A DNA stretch of 64,000 nt from Alphaproteobacteria bacterium (GCA_017534945.1 JAFXVB010000024.1:19546-83545); one strand, 5' to 3'; shown: positions 6,042-46,416, counted from the stretch's first letter. Notes: a model not told the origin generated them from the sequence alone. Numbers and translations are program-made.

Positions 6042-6117
6042 GCTCCCATCGTCTAGCGGTCCAGGACATCGGATTCTCATTCCGGCAACATGGGTTCGAT
6101 TCCCATTGGGAGTGCCA
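6042..6117 (+). tRNA. tRNA-Glu (anticodon CUC), CCA encoded
   Basis: A 76-nt cloverleaf. The acceptor stem is GCTCCCA/TGGGAGT, and the anticodon stem TCGGA/TCCGG carries the loop TTCTCAT (U-CUC-A). The T-arm is ATGGG-TTCGATT-CCCAT and there is a 3' GCCA. It is close to the E. coli tRNA-Glu scaffold. Confidence 0.8.
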
Positions 6118-6310: not shown

Positions 6311-6916
6311 ATGGAACCAACTTATATATCGGCATTTCCAGGAATTGGTACAACAAGAATGTTCGTTGGAAATGACGGAAATATTTATGAAGCCAGCGGA
6401 GGTAGCAGAGCATGGCGTAATAACAACCCTGGAAATTTAGAATATGGAAAATTTACTCGTGATAATGGCGCAATTGGTACAGACGGCAGATTTGCCATAT
6501 TTCCAGATATAACAACAGGTTTTAATGCTATGACCGAATTATTATCAACAAATTCGTATCAAACCTTAACTGTTGAAGGGGCAATAAACAGATATGCACC
6601 ATCAACCGAAAATAATGTTGAAAATTATTTAAAATCAATAGAACGACAAACAGGTTTTACGCGTTCAACACCAATGAACCAACTTTCAAAAGACAATTTA
6701 CTAAAACTAGCACAAGCAATGGCTAAACATGAAGGAAATATGATCGGGAAAAAACGTTTTGTTTCTAAACATGAAAAATATGTTTGGGTGACGGTTGGTG
6801 ATGATAAAGTTAGACCAGAACACGAAATACTGGACGGCGAAATTAGAACATGGTATGATACACCACATCCAGGGGAAGAATACGGATGTCGATGCCATGC
6901 AGAAAGTGTTGATTAA
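6311..6916 (+). CDS. Phage head-morphogenesis (SPP1 gp7 / Mu F)-like domain protein with uncharacterised N-terminal domain
   Basis: The C-terminus WVTVGDDKVRPEHEILDGEIRTWYDTPHPGEEYGCRCHAE matches the Phage_Mu_F signature (DxRVRxxH…LDG…P…NCRC). There is a strong RBS, aaaggag-N5-ATG. The N-terminal about 110 aa (…RAWRNNNPGNLEYG…FAIFPD…) is unassigned. Confidence 0.6.
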   Translation: MEPTYISAFPGIGTTRMFVGNDGNIYEASGGSRAWRNNNPGNLEYGKFTRDNGAIGTDGRFAIFPDITTGFNAMTELLSTNSYQTLTVEGAINRYAPSTENNVENYLKSIERQTGFTRSTPMNQLSKDNLLKLAQAMAKHEGNMIGKKRFVSKHEKYVWVTVGDDKVRPEHEILDGEIRTWYDTPHPGEEYGCRCHAESVD

Positions 6917-15132: not shown

Positions 15133-18100
15133 TTATTCTTCGCTGATGTCGACACTGATGATGTCACCATAGTCACCAACAGGTTCACCGCCGACATAAC
15201 AATGGATTTTCGAACCGATGTTTTCCATCCATTCTTTGATAGCCTCATTTTCAGCGTTTTCGTATTTTGCCTTTTGTGCGGTTGATACGATGTCATGCGC
15301 CAACAATGAAGTCAAACCACCGCCAACAACAGCCGCCCCGGCATCCAACGCAAGACGTTTGCCCGCCCCAGATTCTTTGTTATCTGTCGCCACATTTTCA
15401 CAAGTTGTTTCCAATTCAGACAATGTATTCGACAAATTTGCCAATTCTGTGCTGTCCCATTCATATGTATCGGGGTCACGCAATTCGCTAACCGCCGCAA
15501 CATACGCCTGACCTTTTTCTGTTTCAATAACATTCAATCGCAATGCGCTTATTGCCGCAGGCAACCCAGCAACTTCACTGCGGAAATTATTGTATTCTGG
15601 ACCATTATAGGCATAACCGCCGCCCTTTGTAGTTGTTACACTGATTGTATCCGGCAACCCGTTACAATATCCGTCTACGACAGATTGTGCAGGATTATAT
15701 ATAAATGATGGTGTTGTATAACCGCCAAAATTCGAACAATTTTTCTTGGTATACACACCGTTTCCATAATTATAGTATGTATCAACCGTCGATTTTGTAT
15801 AGGTTTTACCATCACTTCCTGTATATGTTGTTGTTCCGGATTTTGTTCTGCCCGCCTTCCAGAATTTATCCAAATGTGATTTTGCAGCATTCAAATAATT
15901 TTGGATTGTTGCCAATTCTGCAACAGAACCTGTGGCATTATATGTTCTTTCACTGATACTTTTCCACAGATTAGATGCCGCAGTCGCATTGTTCACGCAA
16001 CCTGGATAATCTGTTGGGTCGGTTGACGCATCACTGAAATCACACAATGTGCTTACTTTTGTGATAAGTTGCGATACACCGTTTGCTTCATCAACTTGCA
16101 GACCATATTTTGCATCGACGGCGGCAACCGCATCACGTCCTTCGCGTGTCACAGCACCTTTTATTGTATTTAATGTGACACTTGTTGGGATTGTCATTGA
16201 TGCCTTGTTACTGTCAACGGATGATAATTTTGCTTTTGCAGTCCGCGCATAACGTAATGCTTCATCCATTTTTGTTTGGCTTTTGCTGCGAACCGCGGCA
16301 TCAAAGGCTTCACGCGCTTTTTTGGCCTGGTCTGTACATTCTTCGGCAGAATTCGCCTTGGCCATATTCTTGTTCAACAATCCGCCCAATCCAGAACTGG
16401 ACGCGTTGCTTTGCAATGAATCCATGCCCCATGCAGACAACCCAGCACCAAATACACCAGACCCCAAAGTCACCCACAAATCGGTATTTTTATCTTTTTG
16501 TGAACCTTCGCCGGCTTCCTTACGCGCTCTTTCACCAACTTTATCGGTCACAGTTTTGATTGTGTTGTCACTTATCCATGAACCGCATGTGAACGGGTCA
16601 CCGGTTGAAAAGTATGCATTTGTTTCGCCGCCCAAAGCATTTTGAATATCTTTGTCTTCGGACATAACTGTGATTTTCACGCGGCAAAATGAATTATACA
16701 AATCATTACTTTGAACAGACCCGTTTTCGCCCAAACCTTTGGCACCGTAATCACTTTTCATTTTGCTTTTCAATTTTGCCCAAACAAATGTTGCGTTTGG
16801 ATTTGCGCCAGAATTTTGTGCCAAGCAAATGTTTTGTTCTTTGGTCAATTTGGCCTTGTACTGGGCCTGGGCCTCCATTTCGACATCAACCAAAACATCT
16901 TTGAACACAGTATTAATTGCCGAATTTTCTTGGGCAATTGATTTTGAAATCATGTGTGGTGTTGAACAACCGGACACACCGCCTTCTTCGTAATCACAAA
17001 TGTTTGTTCCGGAATTTCCACATTCGCAAATGTGTTTACCGTCTTGGTTAACCTCTTGAACATCTTGCATATATTGATCATTTGCAGATGTGCGCCATGC
17101 AGAACCGACATTTGTTTCATTTCCCCAACCGGTACGGACATCGGCTTCGCCGTCGGCAATACCCATTTTGGCAATCGCCAAACTTTCCGCACAAACATCA
17201 CTGTTTTTAACCGTTAATGCGCATAACCCTTGGACAATTGTGTAATCCAACACACCGCCAACTTTGTTCATAGATTTATTAAAGCCATCACTGGTGGTGT
17301 TGTATGTCGCCAAACTTATATCATTACGGTTACGATAGCAATTTTGATAATTTGAACCGCACATAGATTTTACACAATTTGATACAACATTACCGCACTG
17401 TTTTTTCAATTGAGCAATCGCCGCATCATTATATGCCGTTGATAAATCTGCGTTCAAAGCCGCGACAACCGGCACTTTGTCATCACCAGTATTTGTGTAT
17501 TCTGGGAACAACGCATCAAATGCACCGTCATCACTGTATGTATAATTGTACACATTGCCTTCGGCACTTAAAGTTGCCGCCATATATTTACAATTTGCAT
17601 CGGTATTGACCGCCGCAGTACATCCACGAACAATATCTTTGTATGTATTACCTTTATTAATAGAACCGGTCATGTCTTTGCCGCCAAACACGCGGGAATA
17701 ACATGCCGCCCCCGAACCACCGCCGCATGAACGAATTGCACATGTTTTAAATGTTTCGATGCATTTATCTTTGGCAGTTTTATCGAATTTTTCAACCATA
17801 TCGGTGACCTTGACCCCGATGATGTCTTTTTTATTACGGGTTGAATATGCTTCGTCAAAGATTTCTTCGCGGGTATCAGGATCGGTCAAATCTTTCTTGC
17901 TTGGGGTTTTCGCCTTGAAAGTCATATAGCAATATTGATTTGAACCAATTGTATCTTGGCATGCCGCACGATAGAATTTACGAACAGAACTGGCCGTTTG
18001 GGTTTCTGTCACATTTGCTTCATCAATTGTGGACGATTTTGATTGGTCTGCAACAAAATCAGCCGTTCCCAAAACGCCAAATGTCACACCTTCGACACAA

Positions 18101-18957
18101 CGATATGGGTTTTTCGCGCATGCATTGACAAAGCAACTGTCGATTACTTTATAACAAGTATTGACCGCATTTGCCGCCGCCAATGTTGCACCGTCGGTCA
18201 TCCATTTATATGTATCACCATCGGTTGGTTTTAATTTGTTATTTGCAGGCTTTGTCATAACCTTTTCGCCAAACAATTGTTGAAAACCTTCTTTTTGGCA
18301 ACGCGACAAAGTTGAATCACACATAACCGCCTGTTTTTTGAATTCATCTTCACTGGTGCATAATTCGAAATCTTCGCCACAGACATTATCTTTGGTTAAA
18401 CAATTTTTATATTTTTTAACACAATCCGCGGTGGATAATTTATTACGTGTCGCCGCACCAATAATGTCAATCCCCATAACCGAACCATCGGTTGGATATG
18501 TATAACGCGCAATTTCTGTTTGATTGGTGCCATCAACATAGGAAGATACAGAGGATAAAGCGGAGATATTAGATACACCAAACAAACTGTTTATCGCGGT
18601 TGATGAACATTGATACAAAGTACTGAAACATTCACCCATGTGACCATGGAACAAAACATTTGTTGTGCATTCTTCAAAATCAGAACCACACGCATTGTCA
18701 GCCTTCATACAACTGCGATATTCTTCGATGCATTCAGCATCACTGAGCAGTGGGTTCGCCGTTGTGGACGATGATGATGTGCCGGATGTATTCGCAACAG
18801 TATTATTCGACTTTACCACATTTGACAATGATGCCAATCGACGCGATGCCGCCGTACCAATATTTGGTGTTGTCATTGCAACACGCGCCGCAGAATATGC
18901 CGCACCACACACGCACATTACCGCCAGAAAACTAACCGATTTTTTGAAAAAATGCAT
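15133..18957 (-). CDS. Giant secreted cysteine-rich modular protein (1274 aa), no recognisable family
   Basis: The start was chosen at MHFFKKSVSFLAVMCVCGAAYSAA (RBS aggaga-N6-ATG; signal peptide). There are at least two clear roughly 55-aa six-Cys module repeats: ECIEEYRSCMKADNACGSDFEECT…CFSTLYQC…LFG and DCVKKYKNCLTKDNVCGEDFELCT…CDSTLSRC…LFG. Further Cys-pair motifs follow. The composition is S/T/N/G/K-rich and there is no C-terminal beta-barrel. Confidence 0.7.
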   Translation of the reverse strand: MHFFKKSVSFLAVMCVCGAAYSAARVAMTTPNIGTAASRRLASLSNVVKSNNTVANTSGTSSSSTTANPLLSDAECIEEYRSCMKADNACGSDFEECTTNVLFHGHMGECFSTLYQCSSTAINSLFGVSNISALSSVSSYVDGTNQTEIARYTYPTDGSVMGIDIIGAATRNKLSTADCVKKYKNCLTKDNVCGEDFELCTSEDEFKKQAVMCDSTLSRCQKEGFQQLFGEKVMTKPANNKLKPTDGDTYKWMTDGATLAAANAVNTCYKVIDSCFVNACAKNPYRCVEGVTFGVLGTADFVADQSKSSTIDEANVTETQTASSVRKFYRAACQDTIGSNQYCYMTFKAKTPSKKDLTDPDTREEIFDEAYSTRNKKDIIGVKVTDMVEKFDKTAKDKCIETFKTCAIRSCGGGSGAACYSRVFGGKDMTGSINKGNTYKDIVRGCTAAVNTDANCKYMAATLSAEGNVYNYTYSDDGAFDALFPEYTNTGDDKVPVVAALNADLSTAYNDAAIAQLKKQCGNVVSNCVKSMCGSNYQNCYRNRNDISLATYNTTSDGFNKSMNKVGGVLDYTIVQGLCALTVKNSDVCAESLAIAKMGIADGEADVRTGWGNETNVGSAWRTSANDQYMQDVQEVNQDGKHICECGNSGTNICDYEEGGVSGCSTPHMISKSIAQENSAINTVFKDVLVDVEMEAQAQYKAKLTKEQNICLAQNSGANPNATFVWAKLKSKMKSDYGAKGLGENGSVQSNDLYNSFCRVKITVMSEDKDIQNALGGETNAYFSTGDPFTCGSWISDNTIKTVTDKVGERARKEAGEGSQKDKNTDLWVTLGSGVFGAGLSAWGMDSLQSNASSSGLGGLLNKNMAKANSAEECTDQAKKAREAFDAAVRSKSQTKMDEALRYARTAKAKLSSVDSNKASMTIPTSVTLNTIKGAVTREGRDAVAAVDAKYGLQVDEANGVSQLITKVSTLCDFSDASTDPTDYPGCVNNATAASNLWKSISERTYNATGSVAELATIQNYLNAAKSHLDKFWKAGRTKSGTTTYTGSDGKTYTKSTVDTYYNYGNGVYTKKNCSNFGGYTTPSFIYNPAQSVVDGYCNGLPDTISVTTTKGGGYAYNGPEYNNFRSEVAGLPAAISALRLNVIETEKGQAYVAAVSELRDPDTYEWDSTELANLSNTLSELETTCENVATDNKESGAGKRLALDAGAAVVGGGLTSLLAHDIVSTAQKAKYENAENEAIKEWMENIGSKIHCYVGGEPVGDYGDIISVDISEE

Positions 18958-19058
18958 CTCCATTCTCCTATATTTACGATTTATTTTATCATATTTATGA
19001 AGAAAAGGAAAGAGATTTTTCAAAGTTCAAATATGGAAATAATATTTCTGTATCGTCA

Positions 19059-20042
19059 TTAATTGTCAAGTATGGCTTTCAATTCCAACATATCATCGGG
19101 CAATGGGGCTTTAAAAGTCATCTGTTTACCTGTTATTGGGTGTTTTAACGACAAATATGACGCGTGCAACATTTGACCGTTGTGCGTTTTCAAAAATTCA
19201 AGCAGTTCTGGATTTTTAACACTGCCAAACCGATTGGTGCCACGTCCGTATGTCGGGTCGCATAAAACTGGAAATCCATGCGCAGATAAATGAACACGAA
19301 TTTGATGCGTTCGACCCGTCAATAAATTACAACGAAATTGGGAAATCCCAAAACGCGACCAAACATCGATGACGGTCACCTCTGTGGTGGCGGGTTTGCC
19401 CCCGGACTTTACCATTGTCATTTTTTGTCGATTACGCGATGAACGCGCAATATTGCCGGTAATTGTTGCACTTTCCCAATTCGGCACCCCCCAAACAAAC
19501 GCATCGTATTTACGGGTTAAATCATGATTCGAAAAGGTTTTTACCAATTCGCGATATGCCGCATCACTTTTGGCAAAAATCATAACGCCGGATGTATCTT
19601 TGTCCAAACGATGAACAACCCCGGGACGCACATCGCCACCAATCGCAGACAACGATGTATAACACAATAAATTTTGAACAAGTGTCCCTGTTTTATTTCC
19701 AGCCGATGGATACATCACAACACCGCGTGGTTTGTTTATCACAATAATATCTTCGTCTTGGTATAAAATATCTAAATCAAAATCGCATGATACATTATCC
19801 GCCGCCGCCGCGTTTTTTGGGGAATCAGGTACCAACACAATATACATTTCGCCACCACGCACTTTATCGGCAAATTTAACCGGCGCACCGCCACGCGACA
19901 CAGTGAATTTTTGGATTTCACTGCGCGAAAATTCAGGCATCTTTGTGGCTAAAAATTTATCAAGTCGCATTCCTGCATCTGCATCAACAACAATAAATTC
20001 GCGTTGCATAAATATTCCTATTTCTTTCCAAAATCCGCCCAA
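19059..20042 (-). CDS. rluD: 23S rRNA pseudouridine synthase, RluA/RluD family (S4 domain + catalytic domain)
   Basis: It has the HRLDKDTSGVMIFAK catalytic motif and an N-terminal S4-like region. The likely true start is MQREFIVV at 20008. Confidence 0.85.
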   Translation of the reverse strand: MGGFWKEIGIFMQREFIVVDADAGMRLDKFLATKMPEFSRSEIQKFTVSRGGAPVKFADKVRGGEMYIVLVPDSPKNAAAADNVSCDFDLDILYQDEDIIVINKPRGVVMYPSAGNKTGTLVQNLLCYTSLSAIGGDVRPGVVHRLDKDTSGVMIFAKSDAAYRELVKTFSNHDLTRKYDAFVWGVPNWESATITGNIARSSRNRQKMTMVKSGGKPATTEVTVIDVWSRFGISQFRCNLLTGRTHQIRVHLSAHGFPVLCDPTYGRGTNRFGSVKNPELLEFLKTHNGQMLHASYLSLKHPITGKQMTFKAPLPDDMLELKAILDN

Positions 20043-20506
20043 TCGGGGCCACGTTTACATTTCGATATATCAATTTCAAATTCATAATCGCCGGTCGCAG
20101 GACATGTAAGCAGACCGGTTGTTTCGGCTTGCTCTGCATCTTGGGGAGCATTGCGATATGCAAACTTTATTTCCTTTGGCGCCGCAATACAAACAAGACG
20201 CAAATGTCCAACCATTTCACCCATCGGTGATATCCAAACACGAACACTGTCGGCTTCGCCATAGCAAGGAAATGCGTCCAGGTAATATAAAATTAAACCA
20301 TTTTTCAATAATGTGCGGTCTGTGCCACGAAAATGTCCGGTGTATTGCGATAATGGTAATCCTGTCACGCCATGCCAATCAACAGTCGTGGAAAACAAAC
20401 TGACCCGCGGCCCAGGTAATGGTGCCGGTGGTGTCGGTGTGGTGGTTGTATCTGCGAACGCAGAACAACAAAACAATACAGATAATAACGCGATTAATTT
20501 TCTCAT
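20018..20506 (-). CDS. Secreted hypothetical protein (signal peptide, Thr/Pro-rich linker, Cys-containing domain)
   Basis: MRKLIALLSVLFCCSAFA|DTTTTPTPPAPLPGP… It is the last gene of the pilin-like array, before rluD. Confidence 0.5.
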   Translation of the reverse strand: MRKLIALLSVLFCCSAFADTTTTPTPPAPLPGPRVSLFSTTVDWHGVTGLPLSQYTGHFRGTDRTLLKNGLILYYLDAFPCYGEADSVRVWISPMGEMVGHLRLVCIAAPKEIKFAYRNAPQDAEQAETTGLLTCPATGDYEFEIDISKCKRGPDWADFGKK

Positions 20507-21036
20507 TTTGCGAAATCCCCCAATTTAACCACAATCTTTTTAACGCCAGCCGATGGGGCACGTAAAGTATAAACAAACCCGGCACGCGCACCCGCATCCA
20601 ATAATGTGACCGGTGGCGCAAACTGTTCCGGTGCATTTATTTGTTTGCCATCGCCATCGTATGTCATGATAAACAGGTTCGGCGCACCGTAAATTTCAGG
20701 ACTGCGATTTTCAATTATACCCGATACGATAAAGTGATTTACACCATTTCCGTCCGGCGCCAATGTCGTTTTAACAATCGATGCAGTAAGTGGCGCGTTC
20801 GTCACAGAATTTTTACGATAATGTGTTATTGCAACAACAGAAAAAATTATCGCAGACAGCAAAGCACACAACGCCGCTAAAAATACAAAAAATTTATTTT
20901 TACGATTTGGTGTTTTTACCATAAATGTATGACCGCAAATCGCGCACTTTACGGGCATCGCCGGAATTTTATTCAACGTATATTCTGTTCTACAAAAATC
21001 GCATTTTATTTTCATATCACATCCTTTATAGCACAA
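20503..21036 (-). CDS. Zinc-ribbon (MJ0042-type CxxC…CxxC) + TM + DUF3426-like domain protein
   Basis: The N-terminus MKIKCDFCRTEYTLNKIPAMPVKCAICGHTF carries two CxxC pairs. It is followed by a TM helix (FFVFLAALCALLSAIIFSVVAI) and a roughly 100-aa beta-rich C-domain. This architecture is typical of DUF3426 proteins. Confidence 0.55.
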   Translation of the reverse strand: MCYKGCDMKIKCDFCRTEYTLNKIPAMPVKCAICGHTFMVKTPNRKNKFFVFLAALCALLSAIIFSVVAITHYRKNSVTNAPLTASIVKTTLAPDGNGVNHFIVSGIIENRSPEIYGAPNLFIMTYDGDGKQINAPEQFAPPVTLLDAGARAGFVYTLRAPSAGVKKIVVKLGDFAK

Positions 21037-21037
21037 A

Positions 21038-22354
21038 TTATTGCAATTTCAACAAACGATATTTTGCACGAACATCGTTTGCGATATCGTTTAAAGCATT
21101 TTGAAAATCTGCAACCGTCGCATTTGCATTGGCCGCGATTGCACCAAAGCGCCGTCCGGCAAACGTTGTTGAATCAAATTCTTTTTTCGGCAAGAAACTT
21201 ATCATACGATTAAGGTCGCCTAAATACAGGTCTGAAAACACAGCCGACGAAGTGGACGCGTCCCAATAATATCCCGGATTTGTTGGGTCTGTAATTTTAC
21301 TGGAAACAATTAAACGCGGTGTGATTGACCCGGCATATCCAACCGTCACATGTGTTGCATTAACACTGCCGTATGTCATTTTAACAGAACCGTTCACAGT
21401 TAAAATTACAGGTTTCCTTTCCGGATTATCTATACTTAAATTTGGTAATGTCAGGTTTGTCACCAATAAATCGTTCGTTGTAAACGATGAAAATTTTCCT
21501 GTATCCGTCAAAGATAAACGACCCGTAATTTCAAGATTTCTGGAATCAGATGTAAGCGACCCAGACACAGTTGCACTTTTTGTATAAAATTCACTGTCAA
21601 CTGTTGTGCGATTATTAAAAATTAAATTACGCGTATTCAGTTTTCCTATTGTTAAAAATTCATCAAAAGAACCCGAAACAAACGCCATTTTACGAACATT
21701 TAAAACATCATGCGACCCAAGGTTTAATGATGAACGCATTGTTGCATCATCTGGGTTTTGGGACGGCACGCGCCACAAATATAACGCATTATCACGATTT
21801 ATTGTCGTGGTTGTGACAATTCCATTTTTTGCATCTATACCAATATCAGCAACAGATGCACGCCATGTTCCGTTTGCACCATACGCTTTATTACCATCAA
21901 CAAAACCAACATGACCATTTGCCAAGTTCAATATTTGATGTGTACGAAACGGTGATATTTTTTCAGATTCATAAACCACCACACCTTGCAAAGTTGATTG
22001 TCCATTAAAATCTTTGGATTTCAAAACGCGTAATTGATATTTGGTATCTGGGGCATTTATGATTCCGTCGCCCAACCCATATTTTGCCAATTCACCAATT
22101 TCAACACGCACAATATTGCGACCCAATGGTTTTAATAATGTTTCACGATTATCAATTATATACCTTTCCAAAGCCCCTTGGATTTCGGTCATTTGTTTTG
22201 TGATTTCGATATTTTCACGACGTTCAATTGCACCGCGTTGATATTTGAAAACAAACGGAATAATAAGCATTGCCAAAGATACACTAAGCAGTAATTCAAC
22301 CAACATATTACCACTTTGATTTTTTTTCGATAAAGATTTATTTAATATTTTCAT
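21038..22354 (-). CDS. Large type IV pilin-like protein (prepilin-type N-terminus, ~420-aa C-terminal domain), paralog 3
   Basis: The N-terminus is …KKNQSG|NMLVELLLSVSLAMLIIPFV (G-1, E+5, hydrophobic alpha1). The start ATG overlaps the upstream stop (ATGA) at 22351-22354. The LNLGSHDVLNV motif is shared with paralog 2. Confidence 0.6.
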   Translation of the reverse strand: MKILNKSLSKKNQSGNMLVELLLSVSLAMLIIPFVFKYQRGAIERRENIEITKQMTEIQGALERYIIDNRETLLKPLGRNIVRVEIGELAKYGLGDGIINAPDTKYQLRVLKSKDFNGQSTLQGVVVYESEKISPFRTHQILNLANGHVGFVDGNKAYGANGTWRASVADIGIDAKNGIVTTTTINRDNALYLWRVPSQNPDDATMRSSLNLGSHDVLNVRKMAFVSGSFDEFLTIGKLNTRNLIFNNRTTVDSEFYTKSATVSGSLTSDSRNLEITGRLSLTDTGKFSSFTTNDLLVTNLTLPNLSIDNPERKPVILTVNGSVKMTYGSVNATHVTVGYAGSITPRLIVSSKITDPTNPGYYWDASTSSAVFSDLYLGDLNRMISFLPKKEFDSTTFAGRRFGAIAANANATVADFQNALNDIANDVRAKYRLLKLQ

Positions 22355-23607
22355 TGTTCGTCTATGCTTTTTTTTGTTTGCCAATCAGCCGCCATAATCG
22401 CACTGAATTCTTGTTTATCCGGTGTTGCGGATATTGTTGTCCGTCCCAATTTTAATGATGAAAAATTCGGTAATTGATTTGATGGAAATGACCAATTTCC
22501 AATTTTTAATGGCGCAGTTCGCGACATCAATAATTCACCCGATACGGTCAAACCAAAATCACCATAAAACACCATATCCCCGGCCGTCACATATGGCGTA
22601 TACACAGAATTAGAATTTAAAACTGTAAACGCACTGATTGTTCTATTGCTGGACGATTTTAATTTGAACATATTTCCAATTCTTACGGAATTTTTAACGG
22701 TTGCACGATCTGTGATTACCGTTCCAGAATTACTGAAACTGTTTCCGTTCAGGTTGTTTGCGGTAATATTACGAAAACCGCTGATATCGCCCAGCGCACG
22801 AATTGTATCAATGTGCGCATCGGCACCTTGGACATTTGCCCCAGATGAAAAATAAATTGCATCTGCGTTTACATCATCAGCCACCAGAAATGTTGTATTG
22901 ATATTTTTAACATCCACAGAATTAACATCCAAAGTTCCAACATTTAATAAATCTTTGCCGCCCATATTCAAATTACGCAACATAGCGTTCAAGTTGTTTT
23001 TATTTTCTTGCATGTCATCAACATTGGTATTGTCTTTGGATTTATTAATTATTGTATCTGTGGCGCCACGATGCAGAAAATTCATCCTGTCCATTGTTGC
23101 AAAATTATGCGACACACGATATATCAAATTTCCCGGTTTGAATTCTGGCCCCGATACAGCCCATGTATTTCCATACGCAACACCGTCATCACCAACAATC
23201 GCGGCATTACCGCCGATTTGACGCGCAATTTGATTCGTCCTTAGCAAAGAAGACGATATATCAAACCCCAGATAAACATCGGTAATTGTTGTTCCACGAA
23301 ATTGTCTTTTATCAATAAAACCACTGGATATAATTGGCGAAATTTCTTTTAAGTCGTCCGCCGTCAATTGTATTTCTGTGTCACCATCCCAATTTTCTTG
23401 GTGTGTACGAACAAAGTTTAATACACTGTCTTGTAAATCAACAATTTTTTGTGCCACAGAAATATTTTCAATATCATTGTATGTGCGTGTAATTTGTTTA
23501 TACATAAATGGTGCCGCAACCGCAATAATAGATATTGCCAACACAACCTCTATCAATGATGCGCCACGCGACATGTCGTTAAAAATTTTCGTTTTATATA
23601 CAGTCAC
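22351..23607 (-). CDS. Large type IV pilin-like protein, paralog 2
   Basis: MSRG|ASLIEVVLAISIIAVAAPF is a canonical class-III signal (G-1, E+5). 418 aa, with an N/S/T/G-rich beta-type C-domain containing LNMGGKDLLNV. Confidence 0.65.
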   Translation of the reverse strand: MTVYKTKIFNDMSRGASLIEVVLAISIIAVAAPFMYKQITRTYNDIENISVAQKIVDLQDSVLNFVRTHQENWDGDTEIQLTADDLKEISPIISSGFIDKRQFRGTTITDVYLGFDISSSLLRTNQIARQIGGNAAIVGDDGVAYGNTWAVSGPEFKPGNLIYRVSHNFATMDRMNFLHRGATDTIINKSKDNTNVDDMQENKNNLNAMLRNLNMGGKDLLNVGTLDVNSVDVKNINTTFLVADDVNADAIYFSSGANVQGADAHIDTIRALGDISGFRNITANNLNGNSFSNSGTVITDRATVKNSVRIGNMFKLKSSSNRTISAFTVLNSNSVYTPYVTAGDMVFYGDFGLTVSGELLMSRTAPLKIGNWSFPSNQLPNFSSLKLGRTTISATPDKQEFSAIMAADWQTKKSIDEQ

Positions 23608-24949
23608 TTTTTCCCGCCATTAAACATTGTTTTGCATTTATTCTTTGTTCAAGACGCGCCCAAAACATATACTCGCACAATATATGTTGCGCCAATGATG
23701 AAGAATTATATGTTTCACCCAAACTTGCAATCATATCACGACAATTCATTACTGCATCGTCATCTTTCTTTGGATTTTTTAAAATTGCGAAACTATCGTT
23801 GCTGATGCCTGATACAGACACATCTGGTAATACTGTTGTACTGGCCGGGCGAATATCAATAATCACAGAACCATTATCACCCGCATCCAATGCTTTGGAT
23901 GTTTGGTCGCGCAATGTAATATGCGATGCAATGATTGAACCGGTGGAAATACCACTGGATGTATTATAAGAAACACTGGTACCATCGATATACACATCTT
24001 GACCACTGCTGACATTAAGGTACGAACCAACCTCTAATGTTTCTACACTTAACGCGATATGTTCTGTTTCCAAATTACCACGCACATCCCATGTAACCGG
24101 CCCAGTAAACCCAGTATGTCCCGCCGTCAAATCAAACGAATAAACCGATGCGGAATTCGATTCAAAATTTCCTGTGGAACCGTATTCTGCAACCGTTTTT
24201 CCAAACACATTGTTTGCCTTTAACGAACCACGCGTTAATGCCAATGCCGACCCACCAGATTTAGATTGAAAAATACTTTTGTTCGAATTTAATATTCCTA
24301 TTTTATTTTTAGAACCACGATCTGCTTCATTACCAAATATATCCAAAGTATCAAATGCCGCCGTTTCTGCAACCAAGTTATGTCCAACAACTGTATTCGT
24401 ATTTTCTATTACAAAATTATTCATTTCCAAATCGGTTAAAAATGCAGAATTATTTATATCCGGTTCATTACGACGAACAACATCTTGGTATAATGTATTT
24501 AACGGTACACCAACCATTAAACCGGTTGTGGTGCGTTCCGCATAAAAACCGATTCTGCGAACCATTTCTGCAATTTGAATACCGGTTAAATTACCACCAT
24601 CAATCATCAAAGAACCACCAACACCATTTTCATCTTTATCAACAACCAAGAAAATATTTTGTCCAAATGCCGTTTGTGGAATATATCCCAACGGCAATCC
24701 ATACGGTTCCAAAATATCTGTAAAATCTTTGCCACGAATCGTTGTTTTTCCGTATGGCAATGCATCTACATTTTCACGAATAAATATGCGCGCCGCAGTT
24801 TGTGCAACATCAACCTGGTGCACAGAAGAATACATTTTCGCATCCATGTCATTTGTAACCAAACGATTTGTTAATGTTGGCATAAACACAAACAGCAACG
24901 ATACCGCCAATAATGCCTGTAATAAAAAATTTCCGCGTTGTTGATGCAA
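23594..24949 (-). CDS. Large type IV pilin-like protein, paralog 1 (E5 replaced by Q)
   Basis: MHQQRG|NFLLQALLAVSLLFVF… 451 aa with a G/S/T/N-rich C-domain and a C-terminal Cys cluster (…NCRDM…LCEYMF…CLMAGKSDCI). Confidence 0.55.
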   Translation of the reverse strand: MHQQRGNFLLQALLAVSLLFVFMPTLTNRLVTNDMDAKMYSSVHQVDVAQTAARIFIRENVDALPYGKTTIRGKDFTDILEPYGLPLGYIPQTAFGQNIFLVVDKDENGVGGSLMIDGGNLTGIQIAEMVRRIGFYAERTTTGLMVGVPLNTLYQDVVRRNEPDINNSAFLTDLEMNNFVIENTNTVVGHNLVAETAAFDTLDIFGNEADRGSKNKIGILNSNKSIFQSKSGGSALALTRGSLKANNVFGKTVAEYGSTGNFESNSASVYSFDLTAGHTGFTGPVTWDVRGNLETEHIALSVETLEVGSYLNVSSGQDVYIDGTSVSYNTSSGISTGSIIASHITLRDQTSKALDAGDNGSVIIDIRPASTTVLPDVSVSGISNDSFAILKNPKKDDDAVMNCRDMIASLGETYNSSSLAQHILCEYMFWARLEQRINAKQCLMAGKSDCI

Positions 24950-27058: not shown

Positions 27059-27084
27059 CAACAACGTTGCAAAGGGGGGAATTT

Positions 27085-27543
27085 ATGCAAAGTGAATATG
27101 GACGTTCTTTGATTGAAATGTTGGGTGTATTGACCATTGGTGCGGTTATGACTGCGGCGGCATATGGAACATATAATATGTTGCGCACGCGTCAGGTTCG
27201 CAATATGGCGGTAAGTGAAATGGAACAAATCGTTCGCAACACAAAAATATTATTGGAAATGCGTGGCGATTACAGTGCTGTATCCATTGATTATTTGATT
27301 AAATCGGGGGCTATTACAAATTCAAATGCGCCAATGGGTGGCGATGATTGGTCAATCACATCATCGGTTGATGGAAAAACATTTTCTATCAATTTAACTA
27401 ATTTAACCCAAGGCGATTGTGCTTTTTTAGCAACCAAAAAATTAGATTGGGCAAAATCAAAAACCATAAATAAAATTGAAAACAGCGGGGCCGAGGCTTG
27501 TATTGCACCGGCACGTAATTATGTTTCAATAAACATTGAATAA
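27085..27543 (+). CDS. Type IV (type IVa-like) major pilin
   Basis: The RBS aagggggg-N6-ATG is followed by MQSEYG|RSLIEMLGVLTIGAVMTAAAYG (short leader, G-1, E+5). 152 aa, with a C-terminal Cys pair (DCAFLA…EACIAP), the D-region disulfide. Confidence 0.7.
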   Translation: MQSEYGRSLIEMLGVLTIGAVMTAAAYGTYNMLRTRQVRNMAVSEMEQIVRNTKILLEMRGDYSAVSIDYLIKSGAITNSNAPMGGDDWSITSSVDGKTFSINLTNLTQGDCAFLATKKLDWAKSKTINKIENSGAEACIAPARNYVSINIE

Positions 27544-40841: not shown

Positions 40842-41537
40842 TTAAAGAGTTTTAAGGAGCAGGTCAACATCTTTCTGTGATACTTTTATTATTTTCCCCA
40901 ACGGCAATTTTCCCAATTGTAAATTGCCAAAAGATTCACGATGTAATTTTTGAACCGGTGCGCCACATGCACGCAAAACAATTCGCACTTCGTTCTTTTT
41001 CCCTTCGGTTATTGTTATGCGAAGTTTACCCGGTGCAATTTCATCAATGACCATTGGGCGATAATGAATACCGTCCACAGTCGCCCCACGACGCGCAATA
41101 TCCAGGTTTGGATTTTTACCACCAACACGCGCAATATATGTACGCGGAATTTGATTTGTCGGTAATGTTAAACGCCGCACAACATCACCATCATTTGTCA
41201 TCAATAATAACCCCGTTGTTTTATAATCCAAACGCCCAACATATCGCAAATGTTTATATTCTGGGGGTAATATGTCATAAATAGTTTTACGCGAAAGTGG
41301 GTCGCGTACAGTTGTCATTACATTTAATGGTTTATTGAAAATATATAATTCTATGTTTTTTTGTTGTTCTATTTTTTTGCCGTTTATTTTAACAACATCA
41401 TTTTCATCAATATTTGTCGCCGGTGTTTTTATTACTTCATCATTCACAGATACCGCACCAGATTCAATCAATTTTTCCGCATCCCTGCGTGATGCGATAC
41501 CGGCATGTGCAATAAATTTTGCAATTCTTTGTTTCAT
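40842..41537 (-). CDS. rRNA pseudouridine synthase, RsuA/RluB family
   Basis: It has an S4 domain and the GRLDYKTTGLLLMTNDG motif. Confidence 0.8.
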   Translation of the reverse strand: MKQRIAKFIAHAGIASRRDAEKLIESGAVSVNDEVIKTPATNIDENDVVKINGKKIEQQKNIELYIFNKPLNVMTTVRDPLSRKTIYDILPPEYKHLRYVGRLDYKTTGLLLMTNDGDVVRRLTLPTNQIPRTYIARVGGKNPNLDIARRGATVDGIHYRPMVIDEIAPGKLRITITEGKKNEVRIVLRACGAPVQKLHRESFGNLQLGKLPLGKIIKVSQKDVDLLLKTL

Positions 41538-42190
41538 AACATCACCCGCGATATGGCGATTGGTGCCGCCAATTCTGCGCGCAGAATTGTTTTGCCCAAC
41601 GACATGCCACGCGCACCATTTTTATCCAATATTTCAAATTCTGGGTTTGAAAATCCACCCTCGGGTCCAACCAAAATATTTTTTACATTTTTATATTCGT
41701 GTGGCATATCGACACCGTATGCAGCACGTTCATCTGCGAACACTAAATCTGCGAAAGGCAAATCATTAAACTTTATTGGTGATGTGATATCCGGCACAGA
41801 ATTACGATTTGATTGTTCGGCGGCCTCTATCACTATTTTTTTCATACGCCCCCAGTTTATGTGATTAGCAACCGTTCGTTCTGTTATCACAGGAACAAAT
41901 TTCGCAACACCCATTTGTGTCGCCATATTTAACATGTCGTCCAATCGTTTTATCGGTGCAAAATACAAAACAATATCACCAGTTGGGTCGGTATGCGATG
42001 TTTTATCACCAATTGTCATCGTTTTACCATCATCGTTTAATACCGCCGTATATTCATTGCCATCACCAAAAACCAAACAATCTTTGCGCCGCATAACATG
42101 CGATAAATAGTGTGCCACAGATTTATCAACCGGTATTATATTACCAGATTCTATATTGGCGCCGATAAAAATTCTTGGTATATTTTTCAT
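41534..42190 (-). CDS. rsmE: 16S rRNA (uracil1498-N3)-methyltransferase
   Basis: The C-terminus is …ILVGPEGGFSNPEFEILDKNGARGMSLGKTILRAELAAPIAISRVML. Confidence 0.8.
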   Translation of the reverse strand: MKNIPRIFIGANIESGNIIPVDKSVAHYLSHVMRRKDCLVFGDGNEYTAVLNDDGKTMTIGDKTSHTDPTGDIVLYFAPIKRLDDMLNMATQMGVAKFVPVITERTVANHINWGRMKKIVIEAAEQSNRNSVPDITSPIKFNDLPFADLVFADERAAYGVDMPHEYKNVKNILVGPEGGFSNPEFEILDKNGARGMSLGKTILRAELAAPIAISRVML

Positions 42191-42247
42191 AAATATTTTT
42201 ATTTCGTGATTTATCTCTGGACAGTTTTATGGTATAATAATAACACC

Positions 42248-44530
42248 ATGGCTGAGAAATTCAAGATTTTATCTGCAGGTGGGTCGTCCAAGGGGCTGAA
42301 TATTTTCAAATCCAGCGCCTATAAAGAACACGAAGTCGCCCCAATGTCGCAAATGTTTTGGGTGTTCCGTTGGAACGCCATTGTATGGCTGTCTTGCGCG
42401 GTGGCATTTACTTTTGCATTTGTGTTGGAACATATATTCCGTTATGGTTGGTCGCCGGCAACCGCACATTGGTCGGCTATATTTTTACGCGATGCGATAA
42501 CTTCGGTTGGTATGTCGGTTGTGGCGGCGGTTCCTGGTTGGATTGCGCGTTGTGTTATGCGACCTGATTTTTATTGTATTATGCCGCTGTTGCCGTTTAT
42601 TGCGTTTTACTTTATGGTGGACGACACATTGACCAAAGAATTCAATCCGCATGGTAAAGATATTTATGACGAAAAATCTTCGCGTAAGGCAACCGCCGCC
42701 GACATTAAAAAAATGGGGTTGTTTAACAATAAAGAAGGTTTGTTTAATGGTTTTATGATGGTGTTGGGTTATTTCAAAGATAAAGGAAAAACAAAACCAT
42801 TGATGATGGATGAAACTTTATCGGCATTGTGCGTGGCGCCTCCGGGAACCGGTAAAACGGCTGGCGTTGTGATACCGACAATTGTGGAATGCGATAATGT
42901 TTCGATGATTATTAATGACCCAAAGCCTGAATTGGATTATAAAACATCTGCGTATCGCGCGACGATTGGCCCGGTGTTTATTATGAATTGGGCGGGTCAA
43001 GACGACCCAGAACGCGGAATTTATTATCCATCATGGAATCCATTATCCCCAGAACATGTTCCATTTGAAATTGAACAACGCGATTTGTATGTTGATACAA
43101 TTTGCAAAGTCTTGGTCCCCGATGCCCAGGGCAGTGCCGACCCACACTGGTCAATATCGGGTCGTGCGGGGCTATCTGGGTTCGTTCATTATATTGTGTC
43201 CAAGATAGAACGTGCCAAGGCCGATGATTATTTCTATGCGCGGTTGGAATCCGGGGAATTTAATGAAGAAGATGCAAATGTTTTATTGGAATATTATTTG
43301 CAAATGTCCAGTAATCCAAACGCATATGCGGCGATGGGATTGTTGCAACGCGGCGAATTAAATAAAATGAATTATGTCCATGTTGGTTCGTGGCGACATA
43401 TCCCAGATGCATGGGTCGGCAAGGAAGCATCGCTGTCTATGATTTTGGATTGGTTAAACGCATCACAATTGGCAAATGCCGCCGAAATGGAAGAACGTCG
43501 TAAACAAGGCGACCAAATGGTGGCTTTGGCAGACCCAATGAAAGATGTATTAGAAGACGCAGTGAACGAAGCGGTCGAATACGCATATTCGCATCGTGCA
43601 GTTTTGGAATTGACCCAGTTGGCAAATACCCCTGATAAAGAACGCGGGTCTATCATTTCAACAATTATGGCGGGATTGGGTATATTCCGTAATGCCGCGG
43701 TTCGCAATAGAACAAGTCATTCCGATTTCCATTTTGAAGATTTACGCGGTATGGTTGACCCACGCGATGGCAAAATGAAACCTATATCGGTTTATTTATC
43801 TATCAATATGGTTGATGCCCAGGCATTGAATCCTATTACCGGTATTTTCATTGAATTAATGTCTAATTATTTGTTGGTGAATACCCCAGACGCAATAAGC
43901 ACAAATGGTAAAAAGTTAGGGCCATGTCCAGTATTATTCGTGTTGGACGAAATGCCAAAAATGCAAAAGTTAGATGCAGTTATCCAAGGACCAGATTTAG
44001 GACGCGGACAAAAGATTTCATACCTGATTATCGGCCAGGACATTCACCAGATTCAGGAAAAATATGGTGCGGATGCGGCGGCAACAATTATTTCAACAAC
44101 GGCGGCAAAAATTGTTATGCGTCAAAATGATTTAGAGACCGCCAAGAAATTTTCTGATATGATTGGTAATGAAATAAAGAAGGAAGTAAAGAAAAAGAAA
44201 GACAAAAACGGCAAAGAAACCGGAGAAACCGAAGAAACAACCAAAGACCCAAAATTATTGATTTCACCAATGGATATTATGACATTGGGCGAAGGCAAAC
44301 AATTGATTATTTATCAAGGATTTTATCACAGACCGATTGAGGCAACCCAAGAAAGATATTTTGTAAATAAGTCTGATATTGAAAAACAAATAAACGCCAA
44401 AGTTCAAATGGGCAAATCTGCGCCTATGCCGGAATTTTTAGTACCGAATCATTGTCGTGCAATGGGGTATACCGGTCAAATCCGCTTTATGGACCCAACC
44501 ACAAAAACAATAAAAGTTTTGTCTGAATAA
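42248..44530 (+). CDS. Type IV secretion coupling protein (VirD4/TraG/TraD superfamily), orphan
   Basis: It has N-terminal TM helices and the Walker A region …ALCVAPPGTGKTAGVVIPTIVECDNVSMIINDPKPELDYKTSAYRATIGPVFIMNW (TraG/VirD4-like). The Walker B is VLFVLDEMPKMQK. The C-terminal tail is K/E-rich. The start is set at 42248 to avoid the overlap with rsmE. Confidence 0.7.
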   Translation: MAEKFKILSAGGSSKGLNIFKSSAYKEHEVAPMSQMFWVFRWNAIVWLSCAVAFTFAFVLEHIFRYGWSPATAHWSAIFLRDAITSVGMSVVAAVPGWIARCVMRPDFYCIMPLLPFIAFYFMVDDTLTKEFNPHGKDIYDEKSSRKATAADIKKMGLFNNKEGLFNGFMMVLGYFKDKGKTKPLMMDETLSALCVAPPGTGKTAGVVIPTIVECDNVSMIINDPKPELDYKTSAYRATIGPVFIMNWAGQDDPERGIYYPSWNPLSPEHVPFEIEQRDLYVDTICKVLVPDAQGSADPHWSISGRAGLSGFVHYIVSKIERAKADDYFYARLESGEFNEEDANVLLEYYLQMSSNPNAYAAMGLLQRGELNKMNYVHVGSWRHIPDAWVGKEASLSMILDWLNASQLANAAEMEERRKQGDQMVALADPMKDVLEDAVNEAVEYAYSHRAVLELTQLANTPDKERGSIISTIMAGLGIFRNAAVRNRTSHSDFHFEDLRGMVDPRDGKMKPISVYLSINMVDAQALNPITGIFIELMSNYLLVNTPDAISTNGKKLGPCPVLFVLDEMPKMQKLDAVIQGPDLGRGQKISYLIIGQDIHQIQEKYGADAAATIISTTAAKIVMRQNDLETAKKFSDMIGNEIKKEVKKKKDKNGKETGETEETTKDPKLLISPMDIMTLGEGKQLIIYQGFYHRPIEATQERYFVNKSDIEKQINAKVQMGKSAPMPEFLVPNHCRAMGYTGQIRFMDPTTKTIKVLSE

Positions 44531-44534
44531 TTTT

Positions 44535-45797
44535 ATGAAAAAATCTGTTTCGTTTTTATTTGGTGTGTTTTTATTATCAGGTTGCGCAAGTGTGGCGACA
44601 TCAAATTTAATGCAAGTTCGACAATCTTTTGCGCATGATGATTTCATAAAATCCGCCGATAAATTCGCAAATAGCGCAGATATTCAATCCCAAGATTCTT
44701 TGGAGTTATTGATTAGTGGTCTGTCGCAATTCCAAGCAAAAGATTACATACAAAGCGATAACACATTTGAAGAGTTTAACAAACGAAATTACGATACAGA
44801 TGGCGGCAGTATTATTCGCGAAACAAAAAGTTTAATCGGTGGTCAATTGGTAAATGAATATAAACCATATATGATGGATTCTTTGTTTGTGTCTTACTAT
44901 CAAATTTGGGATGCGTTGGGACGGAATAAGCCAGATGATGTTCGTGTTATTATCAATCAATCTTATGCACGACAACAAAATATGTCGCGCGCATATGCCG
45001 ATATGGTTGAAAAAACAAATGAAAAAATGTCAAACGAAAGTGCCAGTGAATTAATGACTGAATTGCAAAAGCGAAATGCACAATGGGCAGCATATACCGA
45101 TATTATGAATCCAGCTTTGATGTATTTGTCGGGCATTTGGTTTTTGAACAATGGCGATTTTAATGATGCAGAAACTTACCTGAAACGCGCAACAGGTATG
45201 GTGCCAAATAATTCTTGGATAAAAACAGATTTAAAATTAGCGGAAAACAATCAAAAACCAACAAATACGACATGGGTATTTATTGAATCTGGGTTTGCAC
45301 CAATATTGCGCGAAGAATCAATTTCTTTACCTGTGCCACTGGGGAACAGTATTGGATGGGTATCAATCGCAATTGCAGAACCAGAATTTAATAATAATCA
45401 TTTATCAATATATGGCGCACAAAGTTTGGCCGATGTAAATGCAATGTTTATGACGGAATTTAATCAATACAGAACAAACGATGCATTGCGGGCCTTTGTT
45501 TCGGCATCGGCACGTGCTGTGGCCCAGGCAACCGCATATAATTCTGGCAGTAAATATTCTGGACTTTTGGGGTTGGGGGCAACTTTATTTTCACTTTCCA
45601 CCACAAATGCAGAGGTTCGTTCATGGGTGACATTGCCCGAAAGCATAAGTGTTATGCGTTTGAATACAGCAAACTTGATTGATTCAAATTTAAGTGCTAC
45701 ACTTGGCACAGATGTAAAATTACCGAAATCTGGAAATTATTTAATCTATGTACGATTGACAGAAAGTGCGCCAATTGTACATATGTTCAAAATATAA
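44535..45797 (+). CDS. Large lipoprotein (420 aa), hypothetical
   Basis: MKKSVSFLFGVFLLSGCASV has a lipobox. It is mixed alpha/beta with no confident family. Confidence 0.5.
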   Translation: MKKSVSFLFGVFLLSGCASVATSNLMQVRQSFAHDDFIKSADKFANSADIQSQDSLELLISGLSQFQAKDYIQSDNTFEEFNKRNYDTDGGSIIRETKSLIGGQLVNEYKPYMMDSLFVSYYQIWDALGRNKPDDVRVIINQSYARQQNMSRAYADMVEKTNEKMSNESASELMTELQKRNAQWAAYTDIMNPALMYLSGIWFLNNGDFNDAETYLKRATGMVPNNSWIKTDLKLAENNQKPTNTTWVFIESGFAPILREESISLPVPLGNSIGWVSIAIAEPEFNNNHLSIYGAQSLADVNAMFMTEFNQYRTNDALRAFVSASARAVAQATAYNSGSKYSGLLGLGATLFSLSTTNAEVRSWVTLPESISVMRLNTANLIDSNLSATLGTDVKLPKSGNYLIYVRLTESAPIVHMFKI

Positions 45798-45810
45798 AAA
45801 AGGAGAAAAT

Positions 45811-46416
45811 ATGAAAAAATTATTACCAATTGCTTTATGCGCGGTATTGGCGGGCTGTGGCGGAACACGCGTCGTCGATTTAGAAAATGAACGCGATGTC
45901 GCAACCATGCAAGATGTTATGGAATTAGAATATCGTGATTGGACAAAAACCGCCGAAAACATGACGGATTCTATGTTAAAAAGCAACGCGTTAACACGCG
46001 TAAAAAATCCTGTGATTGCGGTCGCGAATATTAAAAACGATACAATGCAACGATTTGATACAGATATTTTAATAAAAAAGATTCGCACAACTGTTTTAAA
46101 GTCTGGGCGCGCACAAATTGCAACAAACTTTACCGGCGAAGATACGACAAGCAATACTGTGCGTTCAACCCGCGGAAACGATGAATATGACCAATCAACC
46201 TTTGCAAGCAAAGGCACGTTGGTTGCACCAAACCTTTCGTTGTCGGGCAAAATGTTGCAACGCAATTTGAAAATTGAATCTGGGTGGTTTTCATCGGTTG
46301 ATACACGCGTAGAATATTATCTGCAATTGACATTGACTGATTTGAAAACTGGGTTGTCTGTATGGGAAGACGAACAACCGATTGTCAAAGAAGGCGACCA
46401 TGCACCAACATGGTAA
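45811..46416 (+). CDS. Lipoprotein, LpoB-like (tentative)
   Basis: The RBS aaggag precedes MKKLLPIALCAVLAGCGG. The C-terminal …VEYYLQLTLTDLKTGLSVWEDEQ pattern is reminiscent of LpoB-type lipoproteins. The similarity is weak. Confidence 0.45.
   Translation: MKKLLPIALCAVLAGCGGTRVVDLENERDVATMQDVMELEYRDWTKTAENMTDSMLKSNALTRVKNPVIAVANIKNDTMQRFDTDILIKKIRTTVLKSGRAQIATNFTGEDTTSNTVRSTRGNDEYDQSTFASKGTLVAPNLSLSGKMLQRNLKIESGWFSSVDTRVEYYLQLTLTDLKTGLSVWEDEQPIVKEGDHAPTW

Follow-up and report, generated by a model that had tools for sequence, protein, structure and literature searches.

In Rickettsia, the vir genes of the rvh type IV secretion system are scattered over the chromosome and vertically inherited, with virD4 accompanying virB8-B11, and with virB3-B4 followed by virB6 paralogs (PMC2653234). 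In the VirB/D4 clusters found on plasmids of Alphaproteobacteria, such as those of Erythrobacter aureus (NZ_CP031358), Sphingosinicella, and Microvirga, virD4 closes a virB2-B11 operon and has MobA/MobL relaxases beside it. Two other coupling proteins, Cagbeta (Cag5) of Helicobacter pylori and TrwB of R388, serve an effector-translocating pathogenicity island and plasmid conjugation, respectively. Here, a 64,000-nt stretch of alphaproteobacterial DNA (GCA_017534945.1 JAFXVB010000024.1:19546-83545; hereafter, the window) was analyzed for a feature at 42248-46416, which comprises a gene for a 760-amino-acid (aa) VirD4-like protein (hereafter, virD4) and two lipoprotein genes downstream of it. 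The 760-aa protein is probably the coupling protein, with the functions of substrate receptor and ATPase, of a type IV secretion system that Candidatus Enterousia encodes in scattered, vertically inherited chromosomal genes. Among the origins considered in an initial annotation of this DNA, the one best supported is that virD4 belongs to a reduced type IV secretion system whose components are scattered, given that relatives carry a conserved virB3-virB4 operon elsewhere on the chromosome and that virD4 is a vertically inherited core gene.

As in rvh (PMC2653234), the genes belong to an alphaproteobacterium whose genome is reduced, the vertically inherited vir genes occupy separate chromosomal islets amid housekeeping genes, virB3-virB4 forms an islet of its own, and VirD4 is strongly conserved. 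Unlike in rvh, virD4 stands here alone or with two lipoprotein genes, virB4 is followed by the gene for an unrelated secreted HExxH protein, and VirB6 and VirB8-B11 were not found in the sampled ~20% of gene families. Domain order and motifs are the same as in the VirD4 proteins of the plasmid clusters; in contrast to these, the gene is chromosomal and unlinked to virB, and its product carries an all-alpha insertion of 57-65 residues as well as a larger N-terminal membrane domain. Cagbeta (PDB 8DOL) and TrwB (PDB 1E9R) have the nucleotide-binding and all-alpha fold in common with the protein, but differ from it in sequence, with 12-16% identity in structural alignment.

A Divergent VirD4-Type Coupling Protein

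The virD4 open reading frame (ORF; 42110-44530, plus strand) holds a conserved ATG at 42248, from which a 760-aa protein is encoded (42248-44530); the orthologs share the N-terminus MA.KF.ILS, supporting this start, and an alternative start giving 774 aa is used at times by gene callers. Placement of the product among type IV coupling proteins of the VirD4/TraG family draws on Pfam profiles, fold, and sequence identity. Matches were obtained to PF02534 T4SS-DNA_transf (7.6e-54, 183.7 bits with a cutoff of 20.1), PF12696 TraG-D_C (1e-22, 80.7 bits), and PF10412 TrwB_AAD_bind (2e-19, 70.5 bits). An N-terminal membrane domain of three hydrophobic helices is predicted at approximately residues 42-128 (42371-42631) from both Kyte-Doolittle analysis, with peaks at approximately residues 42-64, 77-95, and 106-128, and an AlphaFold model, with helices at residues 34-66, 70-85, 89-104, and 114-132. 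Walker A (APPGTGKT, residues 197-204; 42836-42859) retains G200, G202, K203, and T204, and Walker B (VLFVLDEMP, residues 562-570; 43931-43957) retains D567 and E568, all invariant in comparison with plasmid VirD4 proteins; GTGKT (200-204) and DE (567-568) are also invariant across 44 orthologs. The Pfam matches, motifs, and hydrophobic segments therefore bear out the initial annotation of a 760-aa TraG/VirD4-like protein with transmembrane helices and Walker A/B motifs.

Two regions distinguish the protein further. Alignment places the clade-specific insertion of ~57-65 residues within the all-alpha domain, at residues ~325-389 (43220-43414); it is missing from the VirD4 proteins of Erythrobacter, Sphingosinicella, Microvirga, and Thalassospira, is found in the sister lineage P0363, and is kept in species both with and without the downstream lipoprotein genes. 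The all-alpha domain of coupling proteins recognizes substrates. The second region, a loop at residues 644-669 (44177-44254) that is rich in lysine and glutamate over residues 644-667, had been described as an atypical C-terminal tail, which proved to be a misreading: it is an internal loop with low predicted local distance difference test (pLDDT) scores in the AlphaFold model, it aligns to a loop that is variable in plasmid VirD4 proteins, and the ~90 residues beyond it align through to the end, with conserved motifs at RPI 695-697 and P728.

The AlphaFold model (pLDDT 75) has a TrwB-like fold consisting of a nucleotide-binding domain and an all-alpha domain. In a Foldseek search of PDB with this model, Cagbeta (8DOL, 3e-16) and TrwB (2e-11) were the best matches, and HerA, VirB4, and DotL were matched only at 1e-6 or weaker. 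A profile of the protein likewise matches Cagbeta (3.5e-12) and TrwB in PDB; such a profile is required, a single-sequence phmmer search of PDB having returned no match. Identity to VirD4 proteins of plasmid virB clusters in Alphaproteobacteria is 30-34%; the closest annotated relatives, at 31-34% over ~600 residues, are encoded by the terminal genes of canonical virB2-B11/D4 clusters on Erythrobacter, Sphingosinicella, Microvirga, and Thalassospira plasmids, with which the protein has many invariant columns in common. In a neighbor-joining tree, the clade falls inside the VirD4/TraG radiation, distant from TrwB and TraD. The clustering with FtsK/HerA-like ATPases that the initial annotation had named as a possible weakness was not seen; by both fold and tree, the protein groups with VirD4. 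Judged from its sequence, it is a genuine type IV coupling protein homolog with the full predicted anatomy, namely, membrane anchor, RecA-like domain, Walker A/B motifs, and all-alpha domain. Because its scores lie far under the NCBIfam cutoffs and its identity to Ti VirD4 is 22%, it is assigned to a divergent VirD4 subfamily and not to the equivalogs of VirD4 or TraG.

virD4 Is a Core Gene of the Candidatus Enterousia Lineage

More than 1,500 homologs of the coupling protein were found, the best 120 of which, at 67-99% identity, belong to Alphaproteobacteria of gut and rumen that have not been cultured. When species-representative genomes were scanned, this yielded 80 loci with the coupling protein, many of them from genomes named Candidatus Enterousia; the window belongs to the Candidatus Enterousia lineage of the order Rs-D84. 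These gut alphaproteobacteria have genomes mostly below 1 Mb, lack the tricarboxylic acid cycle, respiratory chains, and standard transporters, and have been proposed to follow a partner-dependent lifestyle (PMC12306168).

The order tetratricopeptide repeat (TPR) protein-rluB-rsmE, followed by divergent virD4, occurs in every locus that keeps the left flank, and virD4 keeps its chromosomal position in each of the 87 alignable related loci. The gene's location between rsmE and two lipoprotein genes (of 420 aa and of ~200 aa, LpoB-like), as initially annotated, stood up to the coordinates and to LpoB hidden Markov models (HMMs). Between species, VirD4 identity is 66-85%, equal to that of mutS, der, and rsmE. 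In comparisons with four relatives, the ratio of nonsynonymous to synonymous substitution rates (dN/dS) is 0.05-0.09 for virD4, 0.05-0.09 for mutS, and 0.04-0.10 for pnp, with der alike; the LpoB-like gene has values of 0.07-0.10 and the 420-aa lipoprotein gene values of 0.13-0.24. GC content at the virD4 locus is no different from that of its surroundings. Thus, virD4 is a single-copy core gene with conserved synteny, purifying selection acts on it as strongly as on housekeeping genes, and the fixed synteny and low dN/dS support vertical inheritance.

Four other lineages have more distant relatives of virD4 (36-48% identity), which are likewise solitary amid housekeeping genes. In a sister lineage whose VirD4 is 48% identical (L174, 8841-14776), an overlapping gene for a 387-aa membrane protein lies upstream of virD4, and two cytoplasmic-looking ORFs of 212 and 144 aa lie downstream of it, followed by three paralogous small pilin genes whose products share the N-terminus GRSMVEMLGVL with the pilin encoded in the window. 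Two more distant lineages (VirD4 36-39% identical; L182, 8772-10001, and L183/L184, 8958-9995) carry a pentapeptide-repeat protein gene (345-409 aa) immediately 5′ of the stand-alone virD4, the pair again lying amid housekeeping genes.

In Relatives, virB3 and virB4 Lie Elsewhere on the Same Chromosomes

A Pfam scan of 47 ORFs in the window, each at least 150 aa long, gave no VirB, Trb, Dot, relaxase, or integrase match; together with the VirB HMM searches, it confirms within these limits the initial observation that no such genes lie nearby. HMM and tblastn searches with queries drawn from six clusters (Erythrobacter, Thalassospira, Sphingosinicella, Microvirga, R388, and Ti) covered ~170 loci of the lineage (2.7 Mb). 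With plasmid VirB proteins as queries, tblastn detected a VirB4 homolog (31% identity, E 4e-123) in locus L071, at a distance of 5.6 kb from virD4 and with a virB3 gene upstream of virB4. The VirB4 family has >1,400 members at 77-96% identity. In GCA_017475605.1, virD4 and virB3-virB4 are located on one contig, ~30 kb apart. Since virB3-virB4 adjoins rpmJ and ychF and virD4 adjoins rsmE, the vir genes are dispersed amid housekeeping genes. The description of virD4 as an orphan accordingly holds for its immediate surroundings and fails for the genome: virB3-virB4 is present elsewhere on the same chromosomes of relatives.

A third gene, orf208, completes a virB3-virB4-orf208 trio in 68 of the 69 virB4 loci, and this operon is conserved to the same degree as virD4. 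It is located directly 3′ of virB4, with its start overlapping the virB4 stop (e.g., L087, 12414-13040; L071, 4408-5025), and encodes a secreted protein of ~208 aa with an invariant H118-E-x-x-H122 motif and four invariant cysteines. No match to Pfam or PDB and no profile similarity to VirB5 or VirB8 was found for this protein, which may act as a metallopeptidase of the periplasm and take the place of VirB1.

The Lipoprotein Pair Downstream of virD4

Two lipoprotein genes follow virD4 on the plus strand. The first (44535-45797), separated from virD4 by a 4-nt gap, encodes a 420-aa protein with the lipobox LLSGC, in which C17 is nearly invariant; the second (45811-46416), after a 13-nt gap and with a GGAG ribosome-binding site, encodes a 201-aa LpoB-family protein with the lipobox VLAGC. 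The AlphaFold model of the 420-aa protein (pLDDT 82.5) consists of a TPR-like all-alpha N-terminal half and an alpha/beta C-terminal domain. Foldseek searches of PDB returned only generic TPR matches (E ~1e-2) and none for the C-terminal domain, Pfam and NCBIfam gave nothing beyond a weak TPR match, and a PDB profile search was empty. The family has 463 members, all within this lineage. The initial annotation had proposed comparing the pair with VirB7, DotC, DotD, and LpoB: no likeness of the 420-aa protein to VirB7/DotC/DotD-type lipoproteins was found in sequence or fold (Pfam, NCBIfam, PDB profile, and Foldseek searches), and the 201-aa protein did match LpoB HMMs (PF13036, 1e-31; TIGR02722, 125.1 bits versus a cutoff of 110.55), with no PDB match in a single-sequence phmmer search.

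Of 81 genome loci, 38 have the pair immediately 3′ of virD4, as do L090 and L091; the pair is never found away from virD4 in the ~2.7 Mb of lineage sequence. Because its spread over the VirD4 tree is patchy, with about half of the species missing it, the distribution suggests an ancestral virD4-lipoprotein operon from which the pair was lost repeatedly. In L054, which falls within a clade that carries the pair, a lone divergent LpoB-like lipoprotein gene (12288-12965; 29% identical) lies directly 3′ of virD4, with no 420-aa gene.

It is possible, with slightly less than even credence, that the two proteins are ordinary envelope proteins, e.g., regulators of peptidoglycan synthesis like LpoA and LpoB, merely packed behind virD4 in a compact genome and playing no part in secretion. 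A TPR lipoprotein together with an LpoB-family lipoprotein recalls LpoA plus LpoB, the score of the 201-aa protein exceeds the LpoB cutoff of NCBIfam, the window has a gene for a class A penicillin-binding protein (11533-13608, minus strand), and the pair is dispensable for VirD4. Like the 201-aa protein, E. coli LpoB, the activator of PBP1B, is a lipoprotein of similar size, and LpoB HMMs score above their cutoffs. However, identity to E. coli LpoB is 18% (pairwise E 0.011), and only ~20 residues separate Cys16 from the domain, versus a Pro-rich linker of ~50 residues in E. coli LpoB. Furthermore, the window's penicillin-binding protein has Transgly (residues 61-231) and Transpeptidase domains only; UB2H was not found in it at E up to 1e-3, leaving the LpoB-family lipoprotein without its canonical docking site in this enzyme. 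Finally, unlike E. coli LpoB, the 201-aa gene is always downstream of virD4, and the pair keeps this position despite frequent rearrangements around it.

A role for the lipoproteins in secretion is possible but unproven, because VirD4 is equally conserved where they are missing. Most likely, the two are accessory envelope proteins, for which a role at the secretion machine is somewhat less probable, and an unrelated envelope role with mere cotranscription somewhat more so. The initial suggestion that the coupling protein-like ATPase had been recruited into a different envelope system together with the lipoproteins is not supported, the pair being absent from about half of the species, in which VirD4 is just as conserved, and the protein retaining all features of coupling proteins and grouping with VirD4; what leaves it conceivable is the exclusive location of the pair behind virD4.

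A Proposed Scattered Secretion System and Its Alternatives

In the proposed mechanism, a predicted hexamer of the VirD4-like protein, anchored in the inner membrane, would dock onto a VirB4-energized channel. Substrates would be selected via the all-alpha domain with its clade-specific insertion and then fed out of the cell; most likely, these would be macromolecules, such as proteins, that the cell exchanges with a partner, protein or other nonconjugative substrates being weakly favored because no relaxase was found in the sampled sequence. The remaining channel genes would be scattered elsewhere, as in the rvh "archipelago" of Rickettsia.

Several points weigh against this proposal. Hexamer formation, ATPase activity, and docking onto VirB4 are properties that we infer for the VirD4-like protein. 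In NCBIfam equivalog tests, it scored 67-102 bits against the Agrobacterium VirD4 and IncP TraG models, versus cutoffs of 586-728. No match to the VirB HMMs of the six reference clusters was found in the window, which therefore does not include VirB4. Across the ~170 loci, only VirB3, VirB4, and VirD4 were detected; VirB1, B2, B5, B6, B8, B9, B10, and true B11 were not found, and with no VirB2, B5, B6, or B8-B11 a complete channel is not demonstrated. These loci cover ~140-180 gene families, ~20% of an estimated 850-gene genome, so that the missing VirB genes are not proven absent from the genomes. A MobA fragment used as query had no match in the loci, and no relaxase, effector, or substrate was identified in them. 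In addition, VirD4 is conserved to the same degree in species without the lipoprotein pair, and a comparison of VirD4 between species with and without it disclosed no pair-linked region, only scattered and probably phylogenetic differences. Apparent VirB11 matches in the loci were rejected, as they proved to be T2SSE ATPases (545 aa) encoded in a cluster for a type IVb pilus.

The sparse set of detectable vir genes could also be read as a minimal machine, in which the canonical VirB6-B11 channel has been lost and VirD4, VirB3, and VirB4 cooperate with lineage-specific envelope proteins, namely, the TPR and LpoB-like lipoproteins and the secreted HExxH protein Orf208, and maybe with the R64-like type IVb pilus encoded nearby. 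This is unlikely. In its favor, VirB3, VirB4, and VirD4 alone are detectable in 2.7 Mb of lineage DNA, the virD4 and virB4 operons both carry conserved secreted proteins or lipoproteins of no known family, the lipoprotein pair has no location other than the virD4 operon, L054 keeps its lone LpoB-like gene behind virD4, and pilin or pilus genes recur close to virD4 and virB4. Against it, the sample represents ~20% of the gene repertoire, the pair is missing from about half of the species with VirD4 conservation unaffected, housekeeping genes stand between the pilus genes and virB4, and Orf208 has no profile similarity to VirB5 or VirB8. Moreover, we know of no double-membraned bacterium that runs type IV secretion without VirB9/B10-like parts. 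If true, a minimal machine working together with an R64-like pilus would let these bacteria, with their tiny genomes, engage in contact-dependent exchange with the partner cell that they are proposed to need, and it might perhaps extend to the wider clade of Alphaproteobacteria with a stand-alone chromosomal virD4.

A coupling protein-like ATPase working outside secretion, e.g., in FtsK-like DNA pumping at division or in DNA uptake, is very improbable. FtsK and coupling proteins are related, and in the four further lineages with 36-48% identity, the gene also stands alone amid housekeeping genes. However, fold and profiles favor VirD4/TrwB over HerA, the all-alpha domain typical of coupling proteins is present, and the same genomes conserve VirB3 and VirB4 along with it; the FtsK-like reading was rejected on the fold search, in which Cagbeta and TrwB were far ahead of HerA. 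Lastly, the initially proposed decaying remnant of an integrative or conjugative element has next to no likelihood, for although VirB genes are not nearby and a Phage_Mu_F fragment lies beside a tRNA-Glu gene 36 kb off, it is ruled out by the fixed rsmE synteny at one chromosomal position in the 87 aligned loci and by a housekeeping-like dN/dS of 0.05-0.09, with reading frame and motifs intact and no integrase, relaxase, GC shift, att/tRNA border, decay, or patchy distribution.

Promoter Architecture of the rsmE-virD4 Spacer

The divergent neighbor of virD4, rsmE (41534-42190, minus strand), serves as context and is outside the proposed machine. Within the 57-nt spacer common to both genes (42191-42247), an extended -10 promoter of virD4, TGGTATAAT (42230-42238, plus strand), can be read directly and ends 9 nt before the ATG. 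This element was recognized through comparison of loci: all 87 related loci have TGnTA[TAC]AAT, and in 86 the distance from its end to the start codon is 7-10 nt. A scan for consensus promoters and terminators gave counts no higher than in shuffled sequence. Because no Shine-Dalgarno sequence is visible in the 9-nt stretch between the -10 box and the ATG in the window, the virD4 mRNA is probably leaderless or nearly so, with an inferred transcription start. A further conserved motif of the spacer, GTGATTTAT, is located ~14 nt upstream of the virD4 extended -10 and reads ATAAAT on the opposite strand, where it could be the -10 box of rsmE. Overlapping back-to-back promoters may be the reason why the rsmE-virD4 pair never separates.

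Pilus Genes and Other Features of the Window

Type IV pilus genes are present in the window at 21038-24949 (minus strand) and 27067-27543 (plus strand). Three large proteins of this region (418-451 aa) have the prepilin-like N-termini RG/ASLIEVVLA, SG/NMLVELLL, and RG/NFLLQALL, and one of them has a weak Shufflon_N (PilV) match; a 158-aa pilin (YG/RSLIEMLGVL) has a weak PilS match. In relatives (L068, 16660-21368; L087, 19390-22421), a PilO-like gene, a 545-aa T2SSE ATPase gene, and a platform protein gene are found, often 7-9 kb from virB4. The cluster resembles that of the R64 thin (type IVb) pilus. In the published description of Rs-D84, type IV pili are reported solely for another lineage (PMC12306168).

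Elsewhere in the window, downstream of a tRNA-Glu(CTC) gene (6042-6117) lie a 201-aa ORF that matches Phage_Mu_F (6311-6916; 1.4e-9) and several ORFs without a Pfam match; this region may be a small prophage remnant at the tRNA gene. A 1,296-aa ORF without a Pfam match (15133-19023, minus strand) has a 1,011-aa counterpart, likewise without a Pfam match, at the same position in L090, and adjoins a pseudouridine synthase gene and two small ORFs (20018-21036), at least one of which encodes a secreted protein.

Significance

Candidatus Enterousia and the order Rs-D84 are common in gut and rumen and have genomes below 1 Mb, no respiration, few recognizable transporters, and a proposed, as yet unexplained dependence on a partner (PMC12306168). 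No paper linking Rs-D84 to type IV secretion was found in the literature searched, so that the divergent chromosomal VirD4 subfamily occurs in a lineage with no earlier description of type IV secretion there. Alongside Rickettsiales, this lineage becomes the second in Alphaproteobacteria in which a vir system is scattered and passed on vertically, and the significance of this finding would rise sharply if complete genomes were to lack the canonical channel. Retention of a coupling protein and VirB4 as tightly as ribosome-related genes in so reduced a genome suggests that they are likely to be central to the life of the cell. Together, the secretion ATPase pair, the two lineage-specific lipoproteins, and the type IVb pilus offer a concrete entry point to the machinery with which these uncultured bacteria interact.

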